IMG/VR virus record: IMGVR_UViG_3300025129_000005
Reading direction: 5' to 3' (one strand)
Origin: a virus
Taxonomy: Duplodnaviria; Caudoviricetes
DNA: 64,000 bases
The notes under the pieces were generated by a model. The model did no database searches, was not told where the DNA came from, and saw only the letters and a list, made by a program, of their open reading frames with translations. The position numbers and the translations under genes were made by a program. Below, piece by piece: positions 52,430 to 64,000 of this stretch; the stretch's first letter is position 1, and the number at the start of each line of letters is the position of its first letter.

Positions 52430-52437
52430 TATAAATA
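52430..52437 (+). promoter_or_regulatory. Late promoter TATAAATA heading the radical SAM island
   Basis: Exact consensus in the intergenic gap; a second variant GTAAATA at 52456-52462. Confidence 0.65.
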
Positions 52438-52485: not shown

Positions 52486-53610
52486 TTGAAGTCATTAACA
52501 GTTGAATATGTTATAACAGAACAATGCAATCTTAATTGTGAATATTGCTATATGAAAAATAGTAATACATATATGGATCTCGAAGGAACCCTTCATTTTA
52601 TCGAAAATGTCCATAAATTAATGGAAGTATATGGTAGTGATAAATACAATATATCATATTTTGGCGGAGAGCCTTTAATGAATTGGGGGTTGATTGAAAA
52701 GTCAGCCCCTTTATTCAAACAAGACCCTAGATGTGAACATCAGATAATAATAAGCAACGGTCTTCTTCTTGATGAAAATAAAATAAATTTCATAAAAGAA
52801 AATGAGATTGGATTTTCTTTCTCCTTTGATGGATTGTGGCAGAATAAAAATCGTCCACATGTATCACACGAGGATGTGTTTTCATTATATATGAAAAAAA
52901 TTCCCCTTGTAAAAAAACTTGTCGGTAATGGTGGGGGTAAAGTTATGGTATCCCCTAGTAATATTGATACAATGACAGAAAATTTTGAATTTTTTGTAAA
53001 CGAAATTGGAGCTTATTTTCCAGATTTCAGTCTAGTTCGAGATGATATTTGGAGTGAGGATGATGTAAAAAGGTTCAAGGTTGAGAGCCGGAGACTTGCT
53101 GATAGAATTGTAAAATATTACGAAGACGGTAAGGCGGTTTTTGTTGGGTTTTTTGGATTACATCTCATCGATTCTATATTAGGTTATAATAAAGGTAAAA
53201 GACCTTTTGGGTGTTTTGCGGGATGTTCTGGTGTTGGTTATATGCCAGACAAACAATTTTATTTATGTGCCAGATACGGATCAGGTGATTCTGATAAAAG
53301 TGGTCTTATAATGGATGTTAATGGTAATTTAAATCATGATTTGATTAATAAATATTTAGATCCAAATATTCATAACCCTAAATGTTACGAGGAATGCAAG
53401 GCATGTGATCTGTATAAATTTTGTAATGCTGGTTGTACTTATTCACAGACACGTGAAGATGAACAAGGTAATATAACAGCAAAACCAGTAAAAAATGTAT
53501 GTGAATTATATCATATTATACAAGATGATGTATTTTATTTACACGATAAATTAAAAGATAATAAGTTATATATTGATTGTATGGTGAATCGTTATGGTAA
53601 ATACTTTTAA
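52486..53610 (+). CDS. Radical SAM enzyme with SPASM domain
   Basis: CNLNCEYC; FGGEPL; SPASM C(FAG)C...GYMPD...YLC and C.AC.LY.FC.AGC...C. Confidence 0.93.
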   Translation: MKSLTVEYVITEQCNLNCEYCYMKNSNTYMDLEGTLHFIENVHKLMEVYGSDKYNISYFGGEPLMNWGLIEKSAPLFKQDPRCEHQIIISNGLLLDENKINFIKENEIGFSFSFDGLWQNKNRPHVSHEDVFSLYMKKIPLVKKLVGNGGGKVMVSPSNIDTMTENFEFFVNEIGAYFPDFSLVRDDIWSEDDVKRFKVESRRLADRIVKYYEDGKAVFVGFFGLHLIDSILGYNKGKRPFGCFAGCSGVGYMPDKQFYLCARYGSGDSDKSGLIMDVNGNLNHDLINKYLDPNIHNPKCYEECKACDLYKFCNAGCTYSQTREDEQGNITAKPVKNVCELYHIIQDDVFYLHDKLKDNKLYIDCMVNRYGKYF

Positions 53611-53622
53611 GGAGAAAATGCA

Positions 53623-53979
53623 ATGAGTGTAAAAAATATGTCAGAAGTTGTTAGAAAAATGATGGATATTGTTAATTTAATGGAAGAATGCCCTAGTACT
53701 CCCGAAAAGGATGCTATTGTAAACTCCATGCTTAAATTATCATCCATGGTATTGAATAATTTGATGAATGGAAAATCGCCGATGAAGAATGATGGGAAGT
53801 GTGATAATCCTGATTGTAAGTGTGGTGGCAAAAACAATCAAGACGGTAATGGGTGTAATGGTCATACAAGTCAAGGTGGTAATCTTAGGTCTAATAATAT
53901 ATTACCTTCTGTTGATTTAAATTCTACGATAGAGAAAATAAGAGAAGAAATTAAAAATAGTAAAAATGAAAAAGACTAA
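53623..53979 (+). CDS. Small protein with Cys/His patch (CDNPDCKC...CNGH)
   Basis: SD aggag; between two radical SAM genes; shares CNGH with the N-terminus of the Cys-rich protein. Confidence 0.6.
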   Translation: MSVKNMSEVVRKMMDIVNLMEECPSTPEKDAIVNSMLKLSSMVLNNLMNGKSPMKNDGKCDNPDCKCGGKNNQDGNGCNGHTSQGGNLRSNNILPSVDLNSTIEKIREEIKNSKNEKD

Positions 53980-54787
53980 TATTATATATTTGACGACAAG
54001 ATGTAACCTTGGATGTGAGTATTGTTACGAGTCAAGAAAAAATCAGATACAGAGTGATGTCACGAAGGATCAAATTGATGAGTTTATATCTGAGATAGAA
54101 GTTCGTGAATCAGAATACAATCAACACACGGTTGTTATTATGGGTGGTGAGCCAACTATAGTTCCCGATATGGTTGAGTATATAGCAGAAAAAATGATTT
54201 CTTCTAAAAAAACATTTAATGTTCATATGAACACTAACGGTATATTATTGGATAATGATGACTACAGGAATAAATTTTATGACTTGATTGAAAGATCTTC
54301 TGATAATGGTGTTAGTTGGCTAGTTTTGGTTAGTTATGATTGGAAAAATAACAACAAGAGGAAATTTAAAAGCGGTGAAACGTCTACTCATATAGTGGAG
54401 AGTACTTTACGTAAACTTAGTAATGAGGATAGACAGTTCGGTATATCATGCACTGTTTCATATGATAACTGTGAAGAACTTATGGACTATAGCATTAATA
54501 TATTAGAAAGATATAAAATTGTTAGATTGGTTTTTTCTTGGAATTACCAGAATATATCGAATCATATAGGACCTGGTTATATAAAACAGTTACAAGAGTA
54601 TTATGATCCGTATATGGCTGAATTACAAAGAATGTACGATGTTAATATCTGTGGTTTTAATGGAAAAACGTGTTTTGAATGTGGAAATTGTGCAGGAATA
54701 GATTATGATGGTAATTTATATTTAAGCCCAACAAAGGGTATATTGATAGAACCATCTACAACTTTCAAAGAGTTTGATAGATTTTAG
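53966..54787 (+). CDS. Radical SAM enzyme (short, partial SPASM/twitch-like C-terminus)
   Basis: CNLGCEYC; MGGEPT; TNG; C-terminal C....TC..CG.C.GID.DGNLY. Confidence 0.9.
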   Translation: MKKTNIIYLTTRCNLGCEYCYESRKNQIQSDVTKDQIDEFISEIEVRESEYNQHTVVIMGGEPTIVPDMVEYIAEKMISSKKTFNVHMNTNGILLDNDDYRNKFYDLIERSSDNGVSWLVLVSYDWKNNNKRKFKSGETSTHIVESTLRKLSNEDRQFGISCTVSYDNCEELMDYSINILERYKIVRLVFSWNYQNISNHIGPGYIKQLQEYYDPYMAELQRMYDVNICGFNGKTCFECGNCAGIDYDGNLYLSPTKGILIEPSTTFKEFDRF

Positions 54788-54805
54788 GAACAATAAGGAT
54801 TATGG

Positions 54806-55900
54806 ATGAGAATATTTCATATAGATATAAATTCGACAAGACAATGTAATTTAAGATGTAAGTATTGCTATGAGGCTAATAATAGTCTTATGGAGAATGA
54901 GTCATATAAAGATCCTGAAAACTTCATCAAGTTCTGTAAAGATTTCATGGAGTCCGATTTCTTTAAGAGTAATTATGATGCAATTAAAGTAAATTTTTGG
55001 GGCGGAGAGCCTTCACTTAACAAAGAATTATTTAACCATTTAATGGATGAGTTCTTAGAAGATAATAGAGTTATCTTTTTTATGTTTTCTAATGGATTTT
55101 ATATAGATGATTATTACATAAATTTATTTAAAATGTTACAGAAGATAAAAATTAATAGCGAACCTAAATTTGTCATGCAGGTCAGTTATGATGGTGAAAT
55201 TATTCATGACATAGATAGGGTTGATGTTAAGGGTAAAGGTTCTTCTGAGAAGGTTAGACAAACTCTACAGAAGCTTATTGATAACAATATATATTATGTT
55301 ATGAAAAGTACTATATCCCCTAAAAACTTTAAACACTTGTATGAAGCATATCTTGATGTAAGTAAATTTTTACCCCAAGGACGTAGCTACTTTCCGACGA
55401 TAGATTTGCATCTTTCTTATGAGGAAGGTGATGATAGTTATAAACAACATGGTCAAGATTTATATGAGCAATTGATAAAAATATCATCATACCAAAAACA
55501 AAACGGATTGGATAATTTTGTGTTTTTCTTTCCCAATAAAGCATTGTGTGCTGCCGGTGTTAGTATGATAGCAGTGGATATTAATGGTAATATATTACCA
55601 TGTCATGGGGCTTTATATACCAATTATGATGAACATCTTATTGGTAATGTTTCGGACGAGGATGCTATTGATAAAGTTATAAATAGTTCAAATTGGTTTA
55701 AAGACTTCTATACAAACGTTCCAGAAGAATGTAAAGGATGTACAAATAAGTTTTGTTTGAAGTGTAATGTTGTGAAGTATGAGCATAGTGAGAAAGATAA
55801 ATATGAGGAAAAATGGACTGATCATACCTGTCAACCTTATCAATGTTATTTTTTTGATATAATAGATTTGGTTAGTAGGGCACATAGAATGGTTAGTTAA
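54806..55900 (+). CDS. Radical SAM enzyme with SPASM domain
   Basis: CNLRCKYC; FWGGEPS; CAAG.SMIAVDINGNILPCH and CKGC.NKFC..C...C..YQC. Confidence 0.93.
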   Translation: MRIFHIDINSTRQCNLRCKYCYEANNSLMENESYKDPENFIKFCKDFMESDFFKSNYDAIKVNFWGGEPSLNKELFNHLMDEFLEDNRVIFFMFSNGFYIDDYYINLFKMLQKIKINSEPKFVMQVSYDGEIIHDIDRVDVKGKGSSEKVRQTLQKLIDNNIYYVMKSTISPKNFKHLYEAYLDVSKFLPQGRSYFPTIDLHLSYEEGDDSYKQHGQDLYEQLIKISSYQKQNGLDNFVFFFPNKALCAAGVSMIAVDINGNILPCHGALYTNYDEHLIGNVSDEDAIDKVINSSNWFKDFYTNVPEECKGCTNKFCLKCNVVKYEHSEKDKYEEKWTDHTCQPYQCYFFDIIDLVSRAHRMVS

Positions 55901-55911
55901 GGAATTTAATT

Positions 55912-57006
55912 ATGGCATGTAATGGGCATGTAAGTAGTACGGGTTGTCATGGTCATACCCTAACGGGGTGTGTAGGTCACATTAACTCATGTGGTGGTCA
56001 TTCTGGATATTATCCATCAAGGGCTGTTGCATTTACTAATAATGTAGCGGATTCTGGTGATATCATAGACTATGAGAATGAACTTAATGAATTAAGAGAT
56101 GAACTGAATTATGAGGCGTCTAGGAGAGGATTAACTAATCTATTAATTCCCGTATTTGATCAACCAGTGGATGCACTTGAAATAAGAACCATGAGAGATA
56201 CTTATGTGAGTATAACAGGGAACTGTGCAGATACCCCTATAAGTGATGCAGACATTGTAACAGGTGAACTAATACGTCCAATTACAGTAGAATCCATGTT
56301 AGAAGGATTTATCGATTGGGCATCTAATTGTACGTGTAACTGTAACTACTCTTGTACGTGTAACTGTAACTACTCTTGTACGTGTAACTGTAACTACTCT
56401 TGTACGTGTAACTGTAACTATTGTGCATGTGATTGTGATTATTGTACATGTCAGTGTGCTTATGCTTGTACTTGTGATTGTAATTATGCTTGTACATGTG
56501 AGTGTAACTATTGTGCATGTGATTGTAATTATGTTTGTACTTGTGATTGTAATTATGCTTGTACATGTCAGTGTGATAATGAGTGTAATTGTGATTGTAA
56601 TTATGCTTGTACATGTCAGTGTGATTATGCTTGTACCTGCGATTGTAATCATGACTGTATTTGCGATTGTAATCATGCTTCATGTAGTTGTGATTATGCT
56701 TGTACCTGCGATTGTAATCATGACTGTATTTGCGATTGTAATCATGACTGTATTTGCGATTGTAATCATGACTGTATTTGCGATTGTAATCATGCCTGTA
56801 TTTGCGATTGTAATCATGCCTGTATTTGCGATTGTAATCATGCCTGTATTTGCGATTGTAATCATGCCTGTATTTGCGATTGTAATCATGCCTGTATTTG
56901 CGATTGTGCTTATGCTTGTACTTGTGATTGTAATCATGCCTGTATTTGTGATTGTTATTATGTAACATCGTATGTTCCTAGTGGATGTTATAGTCACAAA
57001 AATTAA
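55912..57006 (+). CDS. Cys-rich repeat protein, putative radical SAM substrate / RiPP-like precursor
   Basis: Four N-terminal CxGH motifs, a roughly 110-aa helical-looking domain, then about 27 CxCxCxxx units (about 80 Cys by hand count). Confidence 0.8.
   Translation: MACNGHVSSTGCHGHTLTGCVGHINSCGGHSGYYPSRAVAFTNNVADSGDIIDYENELNELRDELNYEASRRGLTNLLIPVFDQPVDALEIRTMRDTYVSITGNCADTPISDADIVTGELIRPITVESMLEGFIDWASNCTCNCNYSCTCNCNYSCTCNCNYSCTCNCNYCACDCDYCTCQCAYACTCDCNYACTCECNYCACDCNYVCTCDCNYACTCQCDNECNCDCNYACTCQCDYACTCDCNHDCICDCNHASCSCDYACTCDCNHDCICDCNHDCICDCNHDCICDCNHACICDCNHACICDCNHACICDCNHACICDCNHACICDCAYACTCDCNHACICDCYYVTSYVPSGCYSHKN
56329..56961 (+). repeat. In-frame 24-bp (occasionally 21-bp) tandem repeat array encoding CxCxCxxx
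   Basis: tgtacgtgtaactgtaactactct x3 at the 5' end; tgtatttgcgattgtaatcatgcc x5 exact at 56773-56892; related variants between. Confidence 0.97.
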
Positions 57007-57020
57007 TAGGAGGTTAAAAA

Positions 57021-57605
57021 ATGTTGGCTGTTAAGATATTTCCTTTAGATGAAAAGAAAGCTAGAATAACAGGTTCTGGTGATATACCAGAAGGGAGCAG
57101 TGATCCTACAGTGTATATAGGTGTTTCAGATGAAGTGTATAAATTTGTATGTGATAACATCGAAGAACATATATTAATCTGTCCTAGAAACGTGGAAGAA
57201 TTGAAAGTGGATATGATAGAGGTTAAGGCTGCCAATATTCTAATAGAGTTAAAACATACAGCTGTAAAGGCATACAAAAATTTCCATTTGGGTAGAGTTA
57301 TGGATCCAGAATTTCTCATTACATTTATAGATTATACCATGTTGAATAATAAATTTTGTTCACATGGGTTTTTTATAACACAGGATAATAAAGAAGAGAT
57401 GTATCTTGACATACTGAATACCGGTGATATGTCACTTATAGAATCATTGGAGCGATACCTTAATGTTTCTGATAAAATATGTGAGTATTGGTGCCATACG
57501 GATAATTTAATTAAATTCAAAGAAGAAATTTATAATGCCGAAAGTAGGGAAGAATTGGAAGAGATATATAAAAGGTATTGTTACGGTCAAAGTTTCATTA
57601 AGTAA
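57021..57605 (+). CDS. Hypothetical 194-aa protein, possible accessory factor of the radical SAM system
   Basis: SD aggagg; directly after the Cys-rich gene; no family recognised. Confidence 0.55.
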   Translation: MLAVKIFPLDEKKARITGSGDIPEGSSDPTVYIGVSDEVYKFVCDNIEEHILICPRNVEELKVDMIEVKAANILIELKHTAVKAYKNFHLGRVMDPEFLITFIDYTMLNNKFCSHGFFITQDNKEEMYLDILNTGDMSLIESLERYLNVSDKICEYWCHTDNLIKFKEEIYNAESREELEEIYKRYCYGQSFIK

Positions 57606-57609
57606 TTAA

Positions 57610-58476
57610 ATGTTTAGCGATAAAAACATTATATTATTCGGTTTGGTATTAGATGCCGAATCTAACATTACTCCAATGGGGTCATTATATGACGCATTGG
57701 AGTATTTTATGTTTATATATAAGCATAACAAAGATGTACATCTCATCTTTAATATAATTAAGATTAATCGGTATGTTAAGGATGTAAAAATAGAAAGTAT
57801 AAAGAATGAAATAGTAAAAATAATCAATGGTAAATATGACATAAGCGATTACTCATTTATGGGTAATGTTCATGTTCTGAATTTAAAAGACTTGTTCTTT
57901 AAAAATAAACCAAATATAGTCATGACTGTTGATCTTACGATGCCTTTCGGCTTTAAAAATTTTATGTGTAGAGCTAAAGAAGTCATAATAATACCTGAAT
58001 ATACGACCAGTATGTATTACTATAAATCAAAAAAGAATAAGGTTACCTATTTTACTGAAATGTCATTTTGTTATTCAGATGTCCCTTATAAAATGAAGAT
58101 TGATTTTGAATCGCATAAGAAGATAGATAAGTTTGATAATAAATTATATGTTAATTATCCAAAGTATGATGCTAAAAATAGACCAGAAGTGTTAGATTTT
58201 GCCTGTGATATAGGCAAAGAATTGTTGATTAAAGAAGATCGATATTTCTATGATCTTCATGAAAGGTTTGATGAATATGTTTATTTTCAATCGGATAGAT
58301 GGTTTGATCCTCACCCAAGATTATTTCATGAATGTAAATTATACAATAAACCCTATCACTATAAGAGTATTGGTGTAAAGGATGGATCTTATTATCGATA
58401 TAAAGATAGTCTGGCCGAGAATCTTAGTGACCGACAACTGACAAAGGATGATATTATTGTTAAAATGATGTCTTAA
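57610..58476 (+). CDS. Hypothetical protein, possibly glycosyltransferase(GT-B)-like
   Basis: C-terminal FDEYVY....FDPHPRLFHEC.LY.KP loosely resembles the GT-B E...EA...G.P motif; weak. Confidence 0.35.
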   Translation: MFSDKNIILFGLVLDAESNITPMGSLYDALEYFMFIYKHNKDVHLIFNIIKINRYVKDVKIESIKNEIVKIINGKYDISDYSFMGNVHVLNLKDLFFKNKPNIVMTVDLTMPFGFKNFMCRAKEVIIIPEYTTSMYYYKSKKNKVTYFTEMSFCYSDVPYKMKIDFESHKKIDKFDNKLYVNYPKYDAKNRPEVLDFACDIGKELLIKEDRYFYDLHERFDEYVYFQSDRWFDPHPRLFHECKLYNKPYHYKSIGVKDGSYYRYKDSLAENLSDRQLTKDDIIVKMMS

Positions 58477-58497
58477 TTAATAATTTGTGAGGTACCT

Positions 58498-59610
58498 ATG
58501 AAGGTTTTTTCTGAGAATGAGTGGAGTCCCCTGAAAGAAGTTATTGTTGGTTCTGCTTTTTCTGATTACGTTTTTGATGTCGACCTATCTTTTAAGTTGT
58601 TTTTTCGTGATAATTATTCTTGGGGAGCCAGAAAAGGATCCCCAGAAAGAATTGTAATAAAAAAGAAATATGTAGATGAATTACAAGAAGATGTTGAATG
58701 TTTTTCCGAAACACTCACAGACTTAGGTATTAATGTACACAGACCAAATGATATAAAAAAGGTCGTTAGGGTTAAAACTCCTCATTGGTCAACAGAAATA
58801 ATTCCAGCACTGAATGTTCGTGATCAGACCGTTATACTCGGTGATACTATTCTTGAAACATCACCATGTGTGAGGAATAGATATTTTGAAAACGACCTCA
58901 TGAAAGACATTTTTTATGAGGGTTTTCTTGATGGGGCTAATTGGATGGTGATGCCTAGACCTATCATGACCGATAACAGTTTTGACAGGAACCTTTTAGA
59001 TCACAAGTCAAAGTTGAACTCAATACCAGACAAACCGTTCGATCATAGCGATTTGTTCCTAAACCCAAACGATATCATACCTGATGCTAATGACCTGAAA
59101 ATACATGAAATGATGATTGATGGCGCTCAACTGGTACGTTTTGGGAAAGATATCATAATCAATATTTCCAACAAAAATCATTACTTGGGGTACCTGTGGA
59201 TTAAAAGACAATTCCCTCAGTATAATTACCATCCAGTTTATTCGCTGTGTGATAACCATTTGGATACACTGATAGTTCCTCTATGCGAAGGTGTTTTGTT
59301 GTTAAGGTCTAAGAAGTTTGAAGAATTCCTACCCCCATTTCTAAAAGATTGGAAGATCATATATCCACCTGAGATAAGAAGTGATATGTTCCCTAAATAT
59401 GATTCAACCGACCTTATATTAACATCACCATATATTGACATGAACATATTATCGGTTGATGGTAATAAGATAATTGTAAATGAGTTGTTCCCTGAACTAT
59501 CTGAACTGTTGTATAGTGAGGGGTTTGATCCCATTCCAGTGCGACACAGACATAGGAAGATATTTGCTGGTGGATTCCACTGTTTCACATTGGATCTGTT
59601 GAGAGGTTAG
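58498..59610 (+). CDS. Amidinotransferase (glycine / inosamine-phosphate amidinotransferase family, StrB1-like)
   Basis: NEW.PLKEVIVG, RD....G..I.E.P....RYFE, DGAQ, HLD, MN.LS.D and GGFHC.TLD catalytic motifs (Asp/His/Cys). Confidence 0.93.
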   Translation: MKVFSENEWSPLKEVIVGSAFSDYVFDVDLSFKLFFRDNYSWGARKGSPERIVIKKKYVDELQEDVECFSETLTDLGINVHRPNDIKKVVRVKTPHWSTEIIPALNVRDQTVILGDTILETSPCVRNRYFENDLMKDIFYEGFLDGANWMVMPRPIMTDNSFDRNLLDHKSKLNSIPDKPFDHSDLFLNPNDIIPDANDLKIHEMMIDGAQLVRFGKDIIINISNKNHYLGYLWIKRQFPQYNYHPVYSLCDNHLDTLIVPLCEGVLLLRSKKFEEFLPPFLKDWKIIYPPEIRSDMFPKYDSTDLILTSPYIDMNILSVDGNKIIVNELFPELSELLYSEGFDPIPVRHRHRKIFAGGFHCFTLDLLRG

Positions 59611-60366
59611 ATGGAAGTACAAGGAAAAAGGGTGATGTTTGGGCCACCAAGAGGATATACATCTTCTATATGGGATTATTTTAAGGTTCTTCCCGATTAT
59701 CATACTCACAAAACCAAAGAGTTTGACAGGGATACGATTCATGCCATGTCTGACGAAGATGCTTACAAAGAGTATTTACAAGGATATGATGGTTCGAAGC
59801 CATTTATAGATTGTTGTTTGTTGTATTATAACAACCATGCCAACTTATCGTTTATTAAGGATTTGTTATTTACCGATCTGGACTGCTCTGTGTATAATGT
59901 CAGGTCATACAAAGCCGCCGTAAAATCTTATTATCTAATGGTTATGAGAACCATGAATAAATTTTATATGGTCGATGATTTTGAATACTACGACCAAGCA
60001 GGTAAAGATAGGTTGTTTGATTTTGCATATAACCGATTCTCTGTTGAATGGCATCTAAACTATATTAAAAATACCTGTAGGTATAAAGGTGATGTATATT
60101 TCGTGCAAGGTGTTGATATACATGAAGTGATGAACACCTTTAATATGAGAATACCGAATTATGGATTACAGAAACTTAATTCGACAGCATCACATCTTGT
60201 GATTAAACCAAGACTCAAGTATATGCTTGAAAGGTTTAGAGAGTTCGAGCGGTACTGGTCAGACAATATAGAAAAATGTCATGCTGTTAGGGAGAACAAC
60301 ATTAAGATACTGAAAGAATCAAGATTCATAGGGAAATTTGACGAGGATTTATATAGACGTGAATAA
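59611..60366 (+). CDS. Sulfotransferase-like protein
   Basis: GPPRGYTSSIWDYF..LPD.....KEF resembles the G.PK.GT.SL..YL..HP.....KE..F PAPS-binding loop; divergent. Confidence 0.5.
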   Translation: MEVQGKRVMFGPPRGYTSSIWDYFKVLPDYHTHKTKEFDRDTIHAMSDEDAYKEYLQGYDGSKPFIDCCLLYYNNHANLSFIKDLLFTDLDCSVYNVRSYKAAVKSYYLMVMRTMNKFYMVDDFEYYDQAGKDRLFDFAYNRFSVEWHLNYIKNTCRYKGDVYFVQGVDIHEVMNTFNMRIPNYGLQKLNSTASHLVIKPRLKYMLERFREFERYWSDNIEKCHAVRENNIKILKESRFIGKFDEDLYRRE

Positions 60367-61339
60367 CAACCAAAAAATAAATCGAAAGTATTTAGAGCCT
60401 TTAATGAACTGGTGTCAAGAACATCCTTTAAGTGAGTTTGGTGTCATATATGATAATGAGAGATACTTTGCTGATTATCTTGGCGTTAAGACATTCAAGT
60501 TTGTGAATTCTGGCACATCAGCATTAGATTTGATAATGAAGAGAATATCTATCGATAGACCTAAACCTCTGATCTATGGACCCTCATTCTGTCATGTATC
60601 ATGGATCAATGTTTGTGAATGGAATGACTTTGAATATTATTTTGTTGATGTTAAGGAAGATACCCTATCTATTGATCCCGTAAAATTGAAGGAGATGATC
60701 GTAGAAAAAGGAGTTCCTGATATCGTTGTTATGGTTGATATGGGTGGTTACGTTGGCGATGATACGTTGACTGTGAGGGAGATATGCGACTCTCATGGTA
60801 TAATTTTGGTTGAAGATGCCGCGAATGCCTTCGGTCAACAGTATAAGGGTTATAAGGCTGGAACTATTGGTGATTTCTCATTCTTCTCATTTTCCAATCC
60901 CAAACTTCTGACGTGTGGTGAGGGGGGTGCTATTGTATGTAATGGTGACGACTTTAATGATTCTTTTGAGGAAATGATTTATCAGGGTGGATGGTATAAA
61001 TACGGAAAGTCCAGACGAACAAATGGTCTAAATTATATTATGTCTAACTGGATGACTCAGTTATTAAGATATCAATTAGATGACATAGAGACGATCCAGA
61101 AAGAACGTCATGACCAGTTTTTAGTATATTCGGATAAATTTAATTTATTTAGATATGATTCTGATAATAAATATTATTCGCCAAGTTATTACTGCTACAG
61201 ACAGAAAGGTGTATCAAAAAGGATATTCGAGCGTATGACTAAATTGGAAATGTATAGGTATAAAAACCATGATCCTGAGTGTAAAGTGGGTCAGTTGTTA
61301 GAAGATGAACTTGTATACCTTTATATGGAGTATAAATGA
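60338..61339 (+). CDS. DegT/DnrJ/EryC1/StrS-family PLP aminotransferase
   Basis: NSGTSAL, VD....T..IDP, LVEDAA.AFG..Y.G.KAGT.GD....SF...KLLTCGEGG. Start may be GTG 60359. Confidence 0.93.
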   Translation: MTRIYIDVNNNQKINRKYLEPLMNWCQEHPLSEFGVIYDNERYFADYLGVKTFKFVNSGTSALDLIMKRISIDRPKPLIYGPSFCHVSWINVCEWNDFEYYFVDVKEDTLSIDPVKLKEMIVEKGVPDIVVMVDMGGYVGDDTLTVREICDSHGIILVEDAANAFGQQYKGYKAGTIGDFSFFSFSNPKLLTCGEGGAIVCNGDDFNDSFEEMIYQGGWYKYGKSRRTNGLNYIMSNWMTQLLRYQLDDIETIQKERHDQFLVYSDKFNLFRYDSDNKYYSPSYYCYRQKGVSKRIFERMTKLEMYRYKNHDPECKVGQLLEDELVYLYMEYK

Positions 61340-62643
61340 AACTATTGTTTATTGACCTTCCGTTTCTTGATATGAAGAATAATGACCTTAATTTAGGGCT
61401 AAGGTATTTGTTGGGGTATTTAGACCAGAATGATATTGCCTATGACCTGCTTGACTTTAAAGGTACTGATTATTTAGAGAAGTATCGAAAGATCGTATAT
61501 TTCACTTCCACGAAAGCATATCAAAGTTACCGTGAAGATATTGAAAGACGAGAAAGTTTCAAACAAACGGTACATGAATTTATACCATATATCCAAACGT
61601 TTGATGTTGTAGCATTCAGTATCTTCTTTGAATTGAACAAGGTACATTTTGATGAAATGTATGAGACATTAAAACCACATTTAAAACCTAATCAAAAAGT
61701 GGTTATCGGTGGAAATTATCTACGACATTATGACCATCACCTTCAATTCAAAGACTTTGATGGTGATGTCGTTGTTGGACCGGGGGAGCCTTATTTCCAA
61801 AAAATGTTTGGTTTACCTGATTTTGATTTGTATTCATACAATCATTCACCTTGCACCAATCCTTACGCTGTTCCGATAATAGGATCCCATGGATGTGTCA
61901 ATAAATGTGTATTTTGTACACATAGAAGAATAGATATGTGGCACCGTAAGCCAGAGTACATTGTTAAAGAGATTGCTCATTTTTACACGAAATACCATAA
62001 AACTCGTTTTACTATAAAAATGGATAATATGTTAAATGATTACGAAAAACATAACGATTTGATGGAGAAGTTGTCCTTGTTAAACAGGACTATTTTAAGA
62101 TCAAAACTTAAATGGTCAACCAGTTTTTCTTTGTCGAGATATAAAGATTTTGTCGAAAAAGTTGATATCAATAAAATAAGAGAAGCTGGATGCGATACGT
62201 TACTTATAGGGGTGGAAAGCTATAATGAAAATGTCAGAAAATCGTTAAATAAGCCTAGATTTGATATGGATGATATAGAAAATTTTTATAAGTTATTTAG
62301 AGATAATGGGATCAAAGTTTGTCAGAATCTAATGATCGGATATATATCAGAAACTGATGATGATTTTGATAAAAGTGTTGAGATGACTAAGTATATTATG
62401 GATAGATACAGTGATGTTGTCGTTTATACGGACATTTGGACCTACATAATTAACAGCGAGTACAACTATAGAGGGTACGAAAAGGAATTGTATTTTAGAG
62501 AAGACGGTCATTGGGTGTATAGGGATAACACTCACGAAAAACGTATGCATCGTAAAGATGTAATGTTATCCTTGATGTCTAATTACGGTGAAAAACATTG
62601 TATGATAGTAGGACAAGACAATTCAGGAATTATTATGGTATAA
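61336..62643 (+). CDS. Cobalamin-binding radical SAM enzyme (class B methyltransferase-like)
   Basis: N-terminal B12 domain (LG..YL.GYL, VVIGG, V.GPGE); SHGC.NKC.FC; R.PE.IV.EI; IGVES. Confidence 0.88.
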   Translation: MKLLFIDLPFLDMKNNDLNLGLRYLLGYLDQNDIAYDLLDFKGTDYLEKYRKIVYFTSTKAYQSYREDIERRESFKQTVHEFIPYIQTFDVVAFSIFFELNKVHFDEMYETLKPHLKPNQKVVIGGNYLRHYDHHLQFKDFDGDVVVGPGEPYFQKMFGLPDFDLYSYNHSPCTNPYAVPIIGSHGCVNKCVFCTHRRIDMWHRKPEYIVKEIAHFYTKYHKTRFTIKMDNMLNDYEKHNDLMEKLSLLNRTILRSKLKWSTSFSLSRYKDFVEKVDINKIREAGCDTLLIGVESYNENVRKSLNKPRFDMDDIENFYKLFRDNGIKVCQNLMIGYISETDDDFDKSVEMTKYIMDRYSDVVVYTDIWTYIINSEYNYRGYEKELYFREDGHWVYRDNTHEKRMHRKDVMLSLMSNYGEKHCMIVGQDNSGIIMV

Positions 62644-62654
62644 AGAGGAGTAAC

Positions 62655-63779
62655 ATGTTATATTACAATCCGTTTGCAATGAAGAAAATTTTACATAAAA
62701 ATGATTATGAATATGATCTGTTTTATTTGAATAGGGCGGCTGCACCAAAGTTCGATAGGACGGGGTTATTCACCAAATTTGATATAAGTGAGAAATATAA
62801 TTTTCAATCTATATTCAGAATGCCAGATTTTTCAACCCCCTACAACAAAAACTTCGAGGAAACGGCTATGAATACGGCCAAGAAAATTGTTGAATCGGAA
62901 GAACAATTTAACTTATTTTGGTCAGGTGGTTTGGACTCAACAACAGTTTTGATATGTCTTCATCAATGGCGTGATATTATTAAGGATAAAATTAAGATTA
63001 TTATGACCAATGCTTCTATATACGATAATAATTATGCATACAATGAGATAATTAAACATAATTATGATCATGTTGTGTGTGATGATTTTGGTGGGGCTTT
63101 GGATTATTATTCATTAGAGTTTATGAATGTAACAGGGGATGCCAGTGAATCTATATACGGATGGTCTGGAGTTTTACAGAACTTTACGAGAGAGTTAGGG
63201 GTTGATGGGTTATATATAAAACTTAAGGATATTCCTAAACTCAGAAATAGAATAAGCATTGATAATTATGCAACATTCGAATATTATTTGAAATTGTATG
63301 AACTGATCAAGGTGACCCTACCAGCATGTCCTATAGATATAGTTGATGTTCAGGATTTGAATTGGTGGTTCGTGTTTAATTTCTGTTATCAATATGATGT
63401 GTTGAGGTTTATGGTACCACATCTTAAAAATTATAAGAAGTGCTGGGATAACATGAATGCCTTTTTTGCAAACGAGGAATGGCAATTATGGATATATAAT
63501 ACATATGAATCAACCATGAAAGGTTGTACTGACTTTAATTATTTTAAGAAGGATGAAATTAATTTTATCCATAAGTATTATCCAAAGATTGATATATCTG
63601 CTACTTATCCGCGAAAGACCAATGTGCATCTTAAATATTTAGCGCCAATAAATTTCTTAATGATAGATGATGATTATAACCTTATTGATTGCCCTGATTA
63701 TTTGAAGACAACAAAAAAGGAATTATTATGGAATTATAAGAACAAACCCATGGAAGAAGTTCAGATGTTGTTTGACTAA
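62655..63779 (+). CDS. PP-loop adenylating enzyme (asparagine-synthetase C-terminal-like)
   Basis: LFWSGGLDST PP-loop; VTGDASE. SD gaggag favours ATG 62655. Confidence 0.75.
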   Translation: MLYYNPFAMKKILHKNDYEYDLFYLNRAAAPKFDRTGLFTKFDISEKYNFQSIFRMPDFSTPYNKNFEETAMNTAKKIVESEEQFNLFWSGGLDSTTVLICLHQWRDIIKDKIKIIMTNASIYDNNYAYNEIIKHNYDHVVCDDFGGALDYYSLEFMNVTGDASESIYGWSGVLQNFTRELGVDGLYIKLKDIPKLRNRISIDNYATFEYYLKLYELIKVTLPACPIDIVDVQDLNWWFVFNFCYQYDVLRFMVPHLKNYKKCWDNMNAFFANEEWQLWIYNTYESTMKGCTDFNYFKKDEINFIHKYYPKIDISATYPRKTNVHLKYLAPINFLMIDDDYNLIDCPDYLKTTKKELLWNYKNKPMEEVQMLFD

Positions 63780-64000
63780 TGAGAACTACTACGCTTGTAT
63801 TGACAACTGATTGTGATTGGGATTGTAGTTATTGTAACGTCACAAAGTTCGGTAAATATGTTACCAGTAAAGAGAAAATTGATCGCCACCTTCCCTATAT
63901 TATGGAGTTGATAGGAGACTATAACTTCGTTTTAGCGGGGGGTGAGATTGGTCTGGTAGATCCTGATATCATTTCTAATCTGATGGTATCCATAGGAAAG
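63779..64000 (+). CDS. Radical SAM enzyme, 3'-truncated (absent from the ORF track)
   Basis: TAATG overlap; translates MRTTTLVLTTDCDWDCSYCNV...LAGGEIG, with CxxxCxxC and GGE motifs; open to the window end. Confidence 0.85.
   Translation, partial: MRTTTLVLTTDCDWDCSYCNVTKFGKYVTSKEKIDRHLPYIMELIGDYNFVLAGGEIGLVDPDIISNLMVSIGK

Follow-up and report, generated by a model that had tools for sequence, protein, structure and literature searches.

What does a T4-like phage make with an amidinotransferase, a DegT-family aminotransferase and a battery of radical S-adenosylmethionine (SAM) enzymes? The question is raised by IMG/VR record IMGVR_UViG_3300025129_000005, a stretch of 64,000 nucleotides (hereafter the window) from an uncultured T4-like aquifer phage of ~216 kb, of which positions 57610-64000 and their flanks were studied. 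It makes up the 5' half of a ~17-gene island for soluble tailoring enzymes, located between fibre-like genes. An original prediction, made from the letters of the DNA, had proposed that the phage builds a guanidinylated, methylated and possibly sulfated sugar. Our analysis tentatively points to a scheme in which a keto-sugar is aminated, then amidinated, optionally tailored and transferred to a virion fibre protein, a reading that we hold to be possible at somewhat less than an even chance.

The amidinotransferase and the DegT aminotransferase lie in one gene run and keep key catalytic residues

All long open reading frames (ORFs) between 57021 and 64000 are located on the + strand, with an intergenic spacing of -29 to +21 nt. 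Their order is o194, o288, the amidinotransferase gene, o251, the DegT gene, a B12-type radical SAM gene, a PP-loop gene and, cut off after 74 codons, a further radical SAM gene (Table 1). The genes and coordinates named in the original prediction were correct, and its description of the genes as tightly coupled was borne out by this single co-directional run, in which the enzyme classes had also been assigned correctly.

In a phmmer search of the PDB the amidinotransferase matched StrB1 (1bwd, 6e-44), HsvA (5wpi, 3e-37), SxtG (6u1r, 2e-31) and AGAT (1jdw, human or recombinant, 3e-30). The matches span residues 3-369 and therefore the full length of the protein. Pfam was silent at E 0.01, and PF02274 was not reported. 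The catalytic residues Cys362, His254 and Asp208 correspond to Cys332, His227 and Asp179 of StrB1, and Asp109 and Asp256, which hold the guanidino group, correspond to StrB1 Asp108 and Asp229. All five residues are invariant in an alignment of 25 phage and bacterial homologues. Thus, these residues show none of the degeneracy that the original prediction had allowed for.

The neighbouring DegT/DnrJ/EryC1/StrS protein scored 157.8 bits against PF01041 (cut-off 19.8). It has 42 relatives in the PDB at E <1e-10, the best of which are the sugar aminotransferase 7b0m and perosamine synthetase. Lys189, within F-S-N-P-K-L-L-T-C-G-E-G-G, aligns with the F-G-N-K-I-I-T-T-G-E-G-G region of 3bn1, where the lysine that binds pyridoxal phosphate (PLP) is found in perosamine synthetase. 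The presence of the PLP lysine identifies the protein as an aminotransferase and not as a dehydratase of the His type. Substrates of the DegT family are nucleoside diphosphate-linked keto-sugars or scyllo-inosose.

The amidinotransferase is linked to its partner genes in phages

A metagenome scan yielded 80 amidinotransferase loci (contigs are given L numbers), 12 of them phage-like with a GC content of 0.24-0.32 and 68 bacterial with higher GC. Partner genes were present at 10 of the 12 low-GC loci; among the 68 bacterial loci DegT was found once and the other partners never. Hence the genes are not scattered in related phage genomes, an outcome that the original prediction had regarded as fatal to its proposal. 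The higher-GC loci carry genes for P450, PGM1-type ATP-grasp, type III polyketide synthase (PKS), O-methyltransferase and class I/II aminotransferase. These pheganomycin-like, secondary-metabolite gene sets (L034-L102) are conserved and widespread in high-GC metagenome contigs. The context is another, cyanotoxin-like one at L012:10001-19487, where the neighbours of a bacterial amidinotransferase (49% identity) are a Sulfotransfer_3 protein, two TauD dioxygenases, two proteins of the fatty-acid-hydroxylase family and an ankyrin-repeat protein.

The maximum-likelihood tree agrees with this separation. The 15 island-associated phage amidinotransferases form one clade (support 97/89), set against a bacterial clade of 67 rows (100/99). 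The homologue from Campylobacter phage CP220 lies inside the phage clade, but its placement is uncertain because it sits on a long branch; that of cyanophage S-SCSM2R falls outside on a very long branch.

In the T4-like contigs L001, L008, L010, L011, L016 and L018, where the amidinotransferase is 46-72% identical, DegT and three small radical SAM genes (rSAM273, rSAM310 and rSAM291) are found in the same run, usually together with o288 and o194. In L010, the genes for portal, prohead protease and gp23 follow directly after the run. The amidinotransferase, DegT, rSAM273, rSAM310 and rSAM291 are present in most of L008, L010, L011, L016, L018, L024, L027, L040 and L043. The B12-type radical SAM, PP-loop and o251 genes vary across relatives, as do genes for adenosine 5'-phosphosulfate (APS) kinase, methyltransferase and metallophosphatase. 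The conserved core in related phages consists of DegT, the amidinotransferase, three small radical SAM families and a compact GT-B protein.

The island continues beyond the window to a fibre-like gene

The contigs that carry an amidinotransferase identical to that of the window include L005 and L020-L022 (the latter 214-216 kb), and L005 is 99.87% identical to window positions 56878-64000. In these contigs the run extends past position 64000 by ~5.5 kb. Downstream, L005 and L020 encode radical SAM proteins of 273, 310, 318, 327 and 291 amino acids, each with an N-terminal CxxxCxxC motif. Counted together, there are six radical SAM genes in the amidinotransferase block and nine in the whole island. 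They are followed by a 188-amino-acid DXD glycosyltransferase (GT188; PF04488, 4e-10) and a 283-amino-acid E-x7-E protein (o283) that is collinear with the o288 family (hhalign E 0.0012). Then, at L020:11409-14168, comes the gene of a 919-amino-acid Thr/Ser/Gly-rich protein (13% Thr, 9% Gly), preceded by a strong ribosome-binding site. This protein had no PHROG or Pfam match. Judged by its sequence it is a candidate fibre, and it is also a candidate acceptor of the island product. The SbcD and SMC recombination nuclease genes are located 3' of it.

Fibre-like genes therefore flank the island on both sides, a 1474-amino-acid ORF and a Cys-repeat protein upstream and the 919-amino-acid protein downstream. 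Together with a late-type TATAAATA box ahead of the upstream block, this position supports the virion target favoured by the original prediction. No transmembrane segment was found in any island protein (maximal 19-residue Kyte-Doolittle average 1.4), which indicates that the chemistry is cytoplasmic and proceeds without lipid-carrier steps.

Near-identical copies of the region were found in aquifer metagenomes (2017), a cold-spring metagenome (2019) and hot-spring metagenomes (2025), and the phage population is thus geographically or temporally widespread. At window position 63384 the genome record stops, with six mismatches to the window in its last 50 bases (63335-63384). These mismatches are probably an assembly-end artefact at a variable cassette where several other assemblies break.

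A predicted GT-B protein and a sulfotransferase candidate

An AlphaFold2 (AF2) model of o288, built from 54 homologues that were collected by exhaustive profile search, reached a predicted local distance difference test (pLDDT) score of 96.2. VIA-align superposed it on 6eji with Z 14.7 over 241 residues (rmsd 3.3), and on PimA and AviGT4 with 14.2 each. The top 50 of 48,161 chains were all GT-B enzymes (Z 14.7 to 9.5, residues 4-288); Foldseek E-values were weak, about 1e-3. Asp233 and Glu241 form a nearly invariant D-x7-E at the place of the E-x7-E of GT4 enzymes. By its predicted fold, o288 is glycosyltransferase-like of the GT-B type. Its best viral structural matches are two CP20 proteins (TM-score 0.72-0.80). 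A hidden Markov model (HMM) of the family detected CP220 gp077 at 3e-39. This link emerged only with the family HMM, as a tblastn search of o288 against cultured phages gave no match at 1e-3. PDB profile searches yielded nothing useful for o288, o251 or the PP-loop protein.

For o251, homologue searches returned only 5 proteins. Its ESM Atlas language-model features resemble those of viral Sulfotransfer_1 clusters (0.95), and a conserved N-terminal R-x2-F-x-P-x-R-x-Y-T-x-S as well as a Y-N-x-R...S motif resemble loops that bind 3'-phosphoadenosine 5'-phosphosulfate. In L011 and L008 the o251 homologue adjoins a genuine APS kinase gene. These sequence features make o251 a possible sulfotransferase. 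Of the two weaker hits of the original prediction, the GT-B-like one was thus confirmed by the fold (pLDDT 96, Z 14.7), and the sulfotransferase is a lead only.

Two accessory genes vary between sibling strains

The B12-type enzyme scored 65.1 bits against Radical_SAM (PF04055; 29.5 required), and its CxxxCxxC cluster motif consists of Cys187, Cys191 and Cys194. The B12-binding family PF02310 reached 20.8 bits, below the cut-off of 32.1. The best NCBIfam matches were the B12-type families HpnJ, ApyD and PhpK, all far under their cut-offs. A phmmer search of the PDB revealed no relative for this enzyme, nor for two of the small radical SAM enzymes.

In the 374-amino-acid form of the PP-loop protein, the SGGLDS motif comprises residues 90-95 and is invariant in 3 homologues. 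The ESM Atlas model (pLDDT 0.66) had a TM-score of 0.57-0.59 to Asn_synthase clusters, and the language-model features placed the protein at 0.98 to viral clusters named 'Asparagine synthase family', a large viral family. The match to TilS was weak (E 0.047), as was the PDB profile search (E 3). A tblastn search against cultured phages gave no match at 1e-3, and an exact-protein look-up of the 393-amino-acid TTG-start form found nothing on record. A QueC/QueE (7-deazaguanine) identity of the PP-loop/radical SAM pair was considered and rejected: QueC had no NCBIfam match, and QueE matched one radical SAM protein only, at E 0.005.

Both genes are disrupted in siblings. L004, L020 and L021 have a divergent allele of the B12-type radical SAM gene (38-62% amino acid identity) whose coding sequence runs through three frames; in the same three contigs, and in L022 too, that of the PP-loop gene falls into two frames. 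The flanks of the broken genes in L004, L020 and L021 are 99-100% identical to the window. The broken alleles at L020:3009-5446 and L022:1699-2822 correspond to window 61336-63779, and the two independent assemblies agree. These data point to mosaic recombination and gene decay within the island in sibling strains.

Relatives carry further accessory genes. L011:9120-10004 encodes a genuine APS kinase (TIGR00455, 166.5 versus 138.7 bits) with a C-terminal NMNAT/cytidylyltransferase-like domain (residues 163-242); this unusual fusion might supply APS or another activated donor. The metallophosphatase of L011 is ApaH-like. Neither the APS kinase nor the metallophosphatase is present in the island studied here. 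Nor was an APS kinase or a thymidylate-synthase-like family found in the 142-kb genome record, a negative of little weight since this record is only 55% complete.

Gene features, the late-type box and the upstream block

Table 1. Features of the amidinotransferase island and its 5' flank (window positions).
Feature	Position	Strand	Basis or remark
T4-late-promoter-like box TATAAATA	52430..52437	+	within the 83-nt gap that precedes the upstream radical SAM genes
Three radical SAM/SPASM genes, a small ORF and a 364-amino-acid CxCxC-repeat protein	52486..57006	+	upstream block
o194, 194-amino-acid orphan, first gene 3' of the Cys-repeat protein	57021..57605	+	phrog_25260 (unknown function), 4e-13
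o288, 288-amino-acid compact GT-B-fold glycosyltransferase-like protein	57610..58476	+	predicted fold
370-amino-acid L-arginine-type amidinotransferase (AGAT/StrB1 family)	58498..59610	+	phmmer against the PDB and conserved residues
o251, 251-amino-acid orphan, sulfotransferase candidate	59611..60366	+	weak
DegT/DnrJ/EryC1/StrS PLP aminotransferase	60338..61339	+	333 amino acids from TTG 60338, or 311 from ATG 60404
435-amino-acid radical SAM protein with N-terminal B12-binding-like domain (class B type)	61336..62643	+	PF04055, cluster motif
374-amino-acid PP-loop protein, similar to the synthetase domain of asparagine synthetase, without glutaminase domain	62655..63779	+	SGGLDS; alternative TTG start 62598
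N-terminus of 273-amino-acid radical SAM enzyme, running off the window	63779..64000	+	CxxxCxxC

The TATAAATA box at 52430 is the sole intergenic copy between 47 kb and 64 kb, and every terminator-like hairpin found in a scan is intragenic. This is in line with the earlier statement that no promoter or terminator separates the amidinotransferase block from the radical SAM block behind the late promoter. The box is likely the start of the whole operon, and the island is probably transcribed late. Across the window the motif is not enriched (16 observed versus 13.2 expected). Two more + strand copies at 55678-55685 and 60995-61002 are both intragenic. The former lies ~230 nt 5' of the Cys-repeat gene, the latter within DegT, ~340 nt 5' of the B12-type radical SAM gene. 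Both might act as internal late promoters, or the matches might be fortuitous.

The upstream SPASM/Cys-repeat block was found only in the closest relatives (L001, L008 and L011) and is therefore a separable module. That it forms one obligatory system with the amidinotransferase block was considered and rejected, because the two blocks occur separately in more distant phages. Homologues of o194 precede the GT-B gene in L001, L008, L010, L011 and L024. A megablast search of positions 57000-64000 against cultured phages gave no match.

A proposed pathway to a guanidino sugar on the virion

The analysis shows to which classes the enzymes belong, that their catalytic residues are intact, how the operon is built, that the genes are linked and the phage amidinotransferases form a clade of their own, that the strains vary, and that membrane proteins are absent. 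On this basis we make the following proposal. From the enzyme classes we infer a guanidino sugar as product, together with its methylation; sulfation and the virion target are likewise conjectural. A sugar supplied by the host or already attached to protein would be oxidized to a keto-sugar by a radical SAM enzyme. The island contains neither an NAD-dependent dehydrogenase nor a dehydratase; radical SAM enzymes such as BtrN and DesII oxidize or deaminate sugars. DegT would convert the keto group to an amine via Lys189-PLP, and the amidinotransferase would transfer the amidino group of L-arginine to this amine through a thiouronium intermediate at Cys362, giving the guanidino sugar. Tailoring would vary between strains: the B12-type radical SAM enzyme could C-methylate the product, the AsnB-like PP-loop enzyme could amidate a carboxylate with the use of ATP, and o251 might add sulfate. 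Finally, the GT-B and DXD glycosyltransferases would attach the product to a virion surface protein, for which the 919-amino-acid Thr/Ser/Gly-rich protein downstream and the Cys-repeat protein upstream are candidates. This scheme fits best with the enzyme classes, the linkage of DegT and the amidinotransferase, three glycosyltransferase-like proteins, the soluble make-up, the position among fibre genes and the late box.

Several observations weigh against this scheme. The sequence downstream, where the original prediction had suggested looking for nucleotidyltransferase, dehydrogenase or DNA-modifying genes, was inspected, and the island encodes no dehydrogenase, dehydratase or nucleotidyltransferase for sugar activation; in particular a 4,6-dehydratase or a short-chain dehydrogenase/reductase for an activated keto-sugar is lacking. 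DegT reaches no NCBIfam equivalog (best 107.7 bits versus 375), and its C-terminal domain is short, the PF01041 match spanning positions 30-256 of 360. The closest bacterial homologues of the amidinotransferase (41-50% identity) are located in pheganomycin-like clusters with type III PKS, PGM1-type ATP-grasp and P450 genes, where the acceptor is an amino acid, and the phage relatives occur with DegT, radical SAM and glycosyltransferase genes. The acceptor is thus not fixed by homology, which says nothing about the molecule used by the phage. The fold of o288 is also like that of the T4 DNA alpha-glucosyltransferase (Z 10.1; Foldseek probability 0.77-0.94). For o251, Pfam found nothing in 6 members at E 5, the AF2 model reached a pLDDT of only 45 and was too poor for a fold search, and hhalign against a Sulfotransfer_3 protein aligned only a loop like the 5'-phosphosulfate-binding (5'-PSB) loop, with a probability of 0.3%. 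The B12-type radical SAM and PP-loop genes are broken in siblings and hence dispensable, accessory and exchangeable. To our knowledge, nine radical SAM genes far exceed the needs of any sugar pathway, and the neighbouring upstream block is of the peptide-maturase (SPASM) type.

This last point leads to an alternative that we consider unlikely, a direct maturation of protein resembling that of peptides that are made on the ribosome and then altered post-translationally (RiPPs). Here the island and the upstream SPASM genes would modify side chains of the Cys-repeat or the 919-amino-acid fibre protein by cross-links, epimerization, C-methylation or amidation, and the aminotransferase and amidinotransferase would act on oxidized or amine-bearing residues or build a small prosthetic group. 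Nine radical SAM genes around a CxCxC-repeat protein suit such a function. So do the matches of the B12-type enzyme to RiPP C-methyltransferase models (ApyD 1e-11, rSAM_ocin_1 3e-9) and the activity of asparagine-synthetase homologues on peptides in lasso-peptide cyclization. However, no peptide substrate is known for the DegT family, the active sites in the AGAT family accept small molecules, and three glycosyltransferase-like proteins would be left unexplained. Moreover, the core of DegT, amidinotransferase and radical SAM genes occurs without a Cys-rich protein within 10 kb in L010, L016 and L018, and in CP220, too, no Cys-rich protein lies within that distance. A different target would be the phage DNA. 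T-even phages glucosylate hydroxymethylcytosine, and an aminated or amidinated sugar on a modified base could block restriction in this T4-like phage. The resemblance of o288 to the T4 enzyme would agree with such a hypermodification, and radical SAM, PLP and PP-loop enzymes take part in known phage hypermodification routes. We regard it as decidedly unlikely: the island is located behind a late-type box among fibre genes, not replication genes, GT4-type protein or lipid glycosyltransferases outscore DNA enzymes for o288, and a thymidylate-synthase-like hydroxymethylase is absent from the 142-kb record (55% complete). The DNA of CP220 is reported to carry 7-amido-7-deazaguanine, for which none of these genes is needed.

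The product might also stay free, as a soluble, aminoglycoside-like compound, either a guanidino aminocyclitol or an amino-sugar pseudo-oligosaccharide, that acts in the infected cell or is released at lysis. Aminoglycoside clusters contain a parallel gene set (a DegT-type aminotransferase, a StrB1-like amidinotransferase, GT4-like GT-B transferases, radical SAM enzymes of the BtrN, AprD4 and NeoN types and B12-type radical SAM methylases of the GenK type), StrB1 is the best PDB match of the amidinotransferase, and relatives add APS kinase, methyltransferase and metallophosphatase. The corresponding trio of S-SCSM2R has even been named 'antibiotic synthesis genes' (PMC12801897). Yet the island has no cyclitol synthase, exporter or resistance gene, its accessory genes decay in sibling strains, and the position at fibre genes behind a late box suits a virion product better, so that a free metabolite seems improbable to us. 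That a lytic phage makes a free streptidine-like guanidino aminocyclitol or amino-sugar pseudo-oligosaccharide, with radical SAM enzymes in place of the NAD-dependent steps, and directs it against competing phages or bacteria or uses it to reprogram the host, is very unlikely in our estimation. Finally, glycosyltransferase-rich islands of cyanophages are usually read as remodelling the host surface (PMC12801897), i.e. altering lipopolysaccharide, capsule or flagellar glycans, for example to block superinfection or to keep progeny from sticking to debris, and CP220 encodes a PAP2 membrane phosphatase ~3 kb downstream of its module. Such a role is highly improbable here, as the island lacks a membrane protein, flippase, polymerase and polyprenyl-phosphate transferase, and enzymes expressed late would have hardly any time to alter the surface.

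If the preferred reading of a guanidino-bearing glycan on a virion protein is true, virions would be modified in a way that is new, with new sugar chemistry; if a free streptidine-like compound were the product, a virus would encode something akin to an aminoglycoside. In either case, the amidinotransferases that phages recruited form a single clade apart from the bacterial enzymes of secondary metabolism, and the island, set among fibre genes, differs from one sibling strain to the next, as receptor-binding functions do.

Comparison with known systems

Phage amidinotransferases were already published in 2010 (PMC2853527) and 2025 (PMC12801897), so that the novelty is smaller than the original prediction had assumed. 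The latter study reported an aminotransferase/radical SAM/amidinotransferase trio in cyanophage S-SCSM2R and assigned no function beyond the name quoted above. Radical SAM proteins of a related phage were still listed without function in 2025 (PMC12398825). A search of the literature found no paper in which one of these modules is given a product. What is added here to the published phage amidinotransferase and radical SAM genes is DegT, the B12-type radical SAM enzyme, the AsnB-like and GT-B proteins, the possible sulfotransferase and the association with fibre genes.

Chloroviruses and mimivirus carry out autonomous glycosylation with a DegT-type viosamine aminotransferase. Glycosylation of mycobacteriophage capsids and tails has been described as well (Freeman et al. 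2023, as cited in PMC12801897). In these systems soluble virus-encoded glycosyltransferases, in the giant viruses together with a sugar aminotransferase, are encoded beside structural genes and modify proteins of the virion within the cytoplasm, as is proposed here for the island. In contrast to the island, we know of no amidinotransferase and no battery of radical SAM enzymes in those systems.

In the streptidine branch of streptomycin synthesis, StsC and StrB1 make a guanidino cyclitol. The likeness consists in the pairing of a DegT-family aminotransferase with an AGAT-family amidinotransferase, for which StrB1 (1bwd) is the best solved match with aligned residues. However, a search of the island revealed no inositol or other cyclitol dehydrogenase, no inosamine kinase and no phosphatase, and the phage amidinotransferase is nearer to uncharacterized bacterial enzymes of PKS/ATP-grasp clusters (41-50%) than to StrB1.

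In the T4-like cyanophage S-SCSM2R, the genes for an AHBA_syn-like aminotransferase, a radical SAM maturase and an inosamine amidinotransferase adjoin one another among those for five glycosyltransferases (ORFs 302-304, 307 and 310), and the DegT HMM matches its ORF305 at 5.5e-10. Its amidinotransferase differs from that of the island, being 26% identical and outside the main phage clade, and its neighbours are 2-oxoglutarate-Fe(II) oxygenases, not many radical SAM genes. Glycosyltransferases thus accompany the amidinotransferase in three phage lineages, as o288, GT188 and o283 here, as gp077, gp088 and gp089 in CP220, and in S-SCSM2R.

In CP220 and CPt10, Timms et al. 2010 (PMC2853527) described an interchangeable block of five radical SAM genes and a putative glycine amidinotransferase without assigned function, and suggested, rather than a glycan, that metabolism is boosted when oxygen is low. 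The CP220 run comprises gp077 of the o288 family, the radical SAM genes gp080, gp081, gp083, gp084 and gp087, the amidinotransferase gp086 and two GT-A-like proteins (gp088, gp089). It differs from the island by having no DegT within 12 kb, and no B12-type radical SAM enzyme, AsnB-like PP-loop protein, o251 or adjacent Cys-repeat protein. There are also shared features. CP220 and CPt10 are T4-like myoviruses with an amidinotransferase of the same clade (33% identity, tblastn 2e-50); in CP220 several small radical SAM genes form one co-directional run with glycosyltransferases at its 3' end, and in both phages, as in the island studied here, the block varies between siblings while the flanks are conserved (PMC2853527). 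The island thus shares what defines a CP220-type module, namely a phage-clade amidinotransferase and at least five radical SAM genes in one sibling-variable run. This radical SAM/amidinotransferase module is widespread in uncultured T4-like phages and has been unexplained in Campylobacter phages since 2010. Since cultured Campylobacter phages carry a homologous module, the question of its product can be tested in culture.

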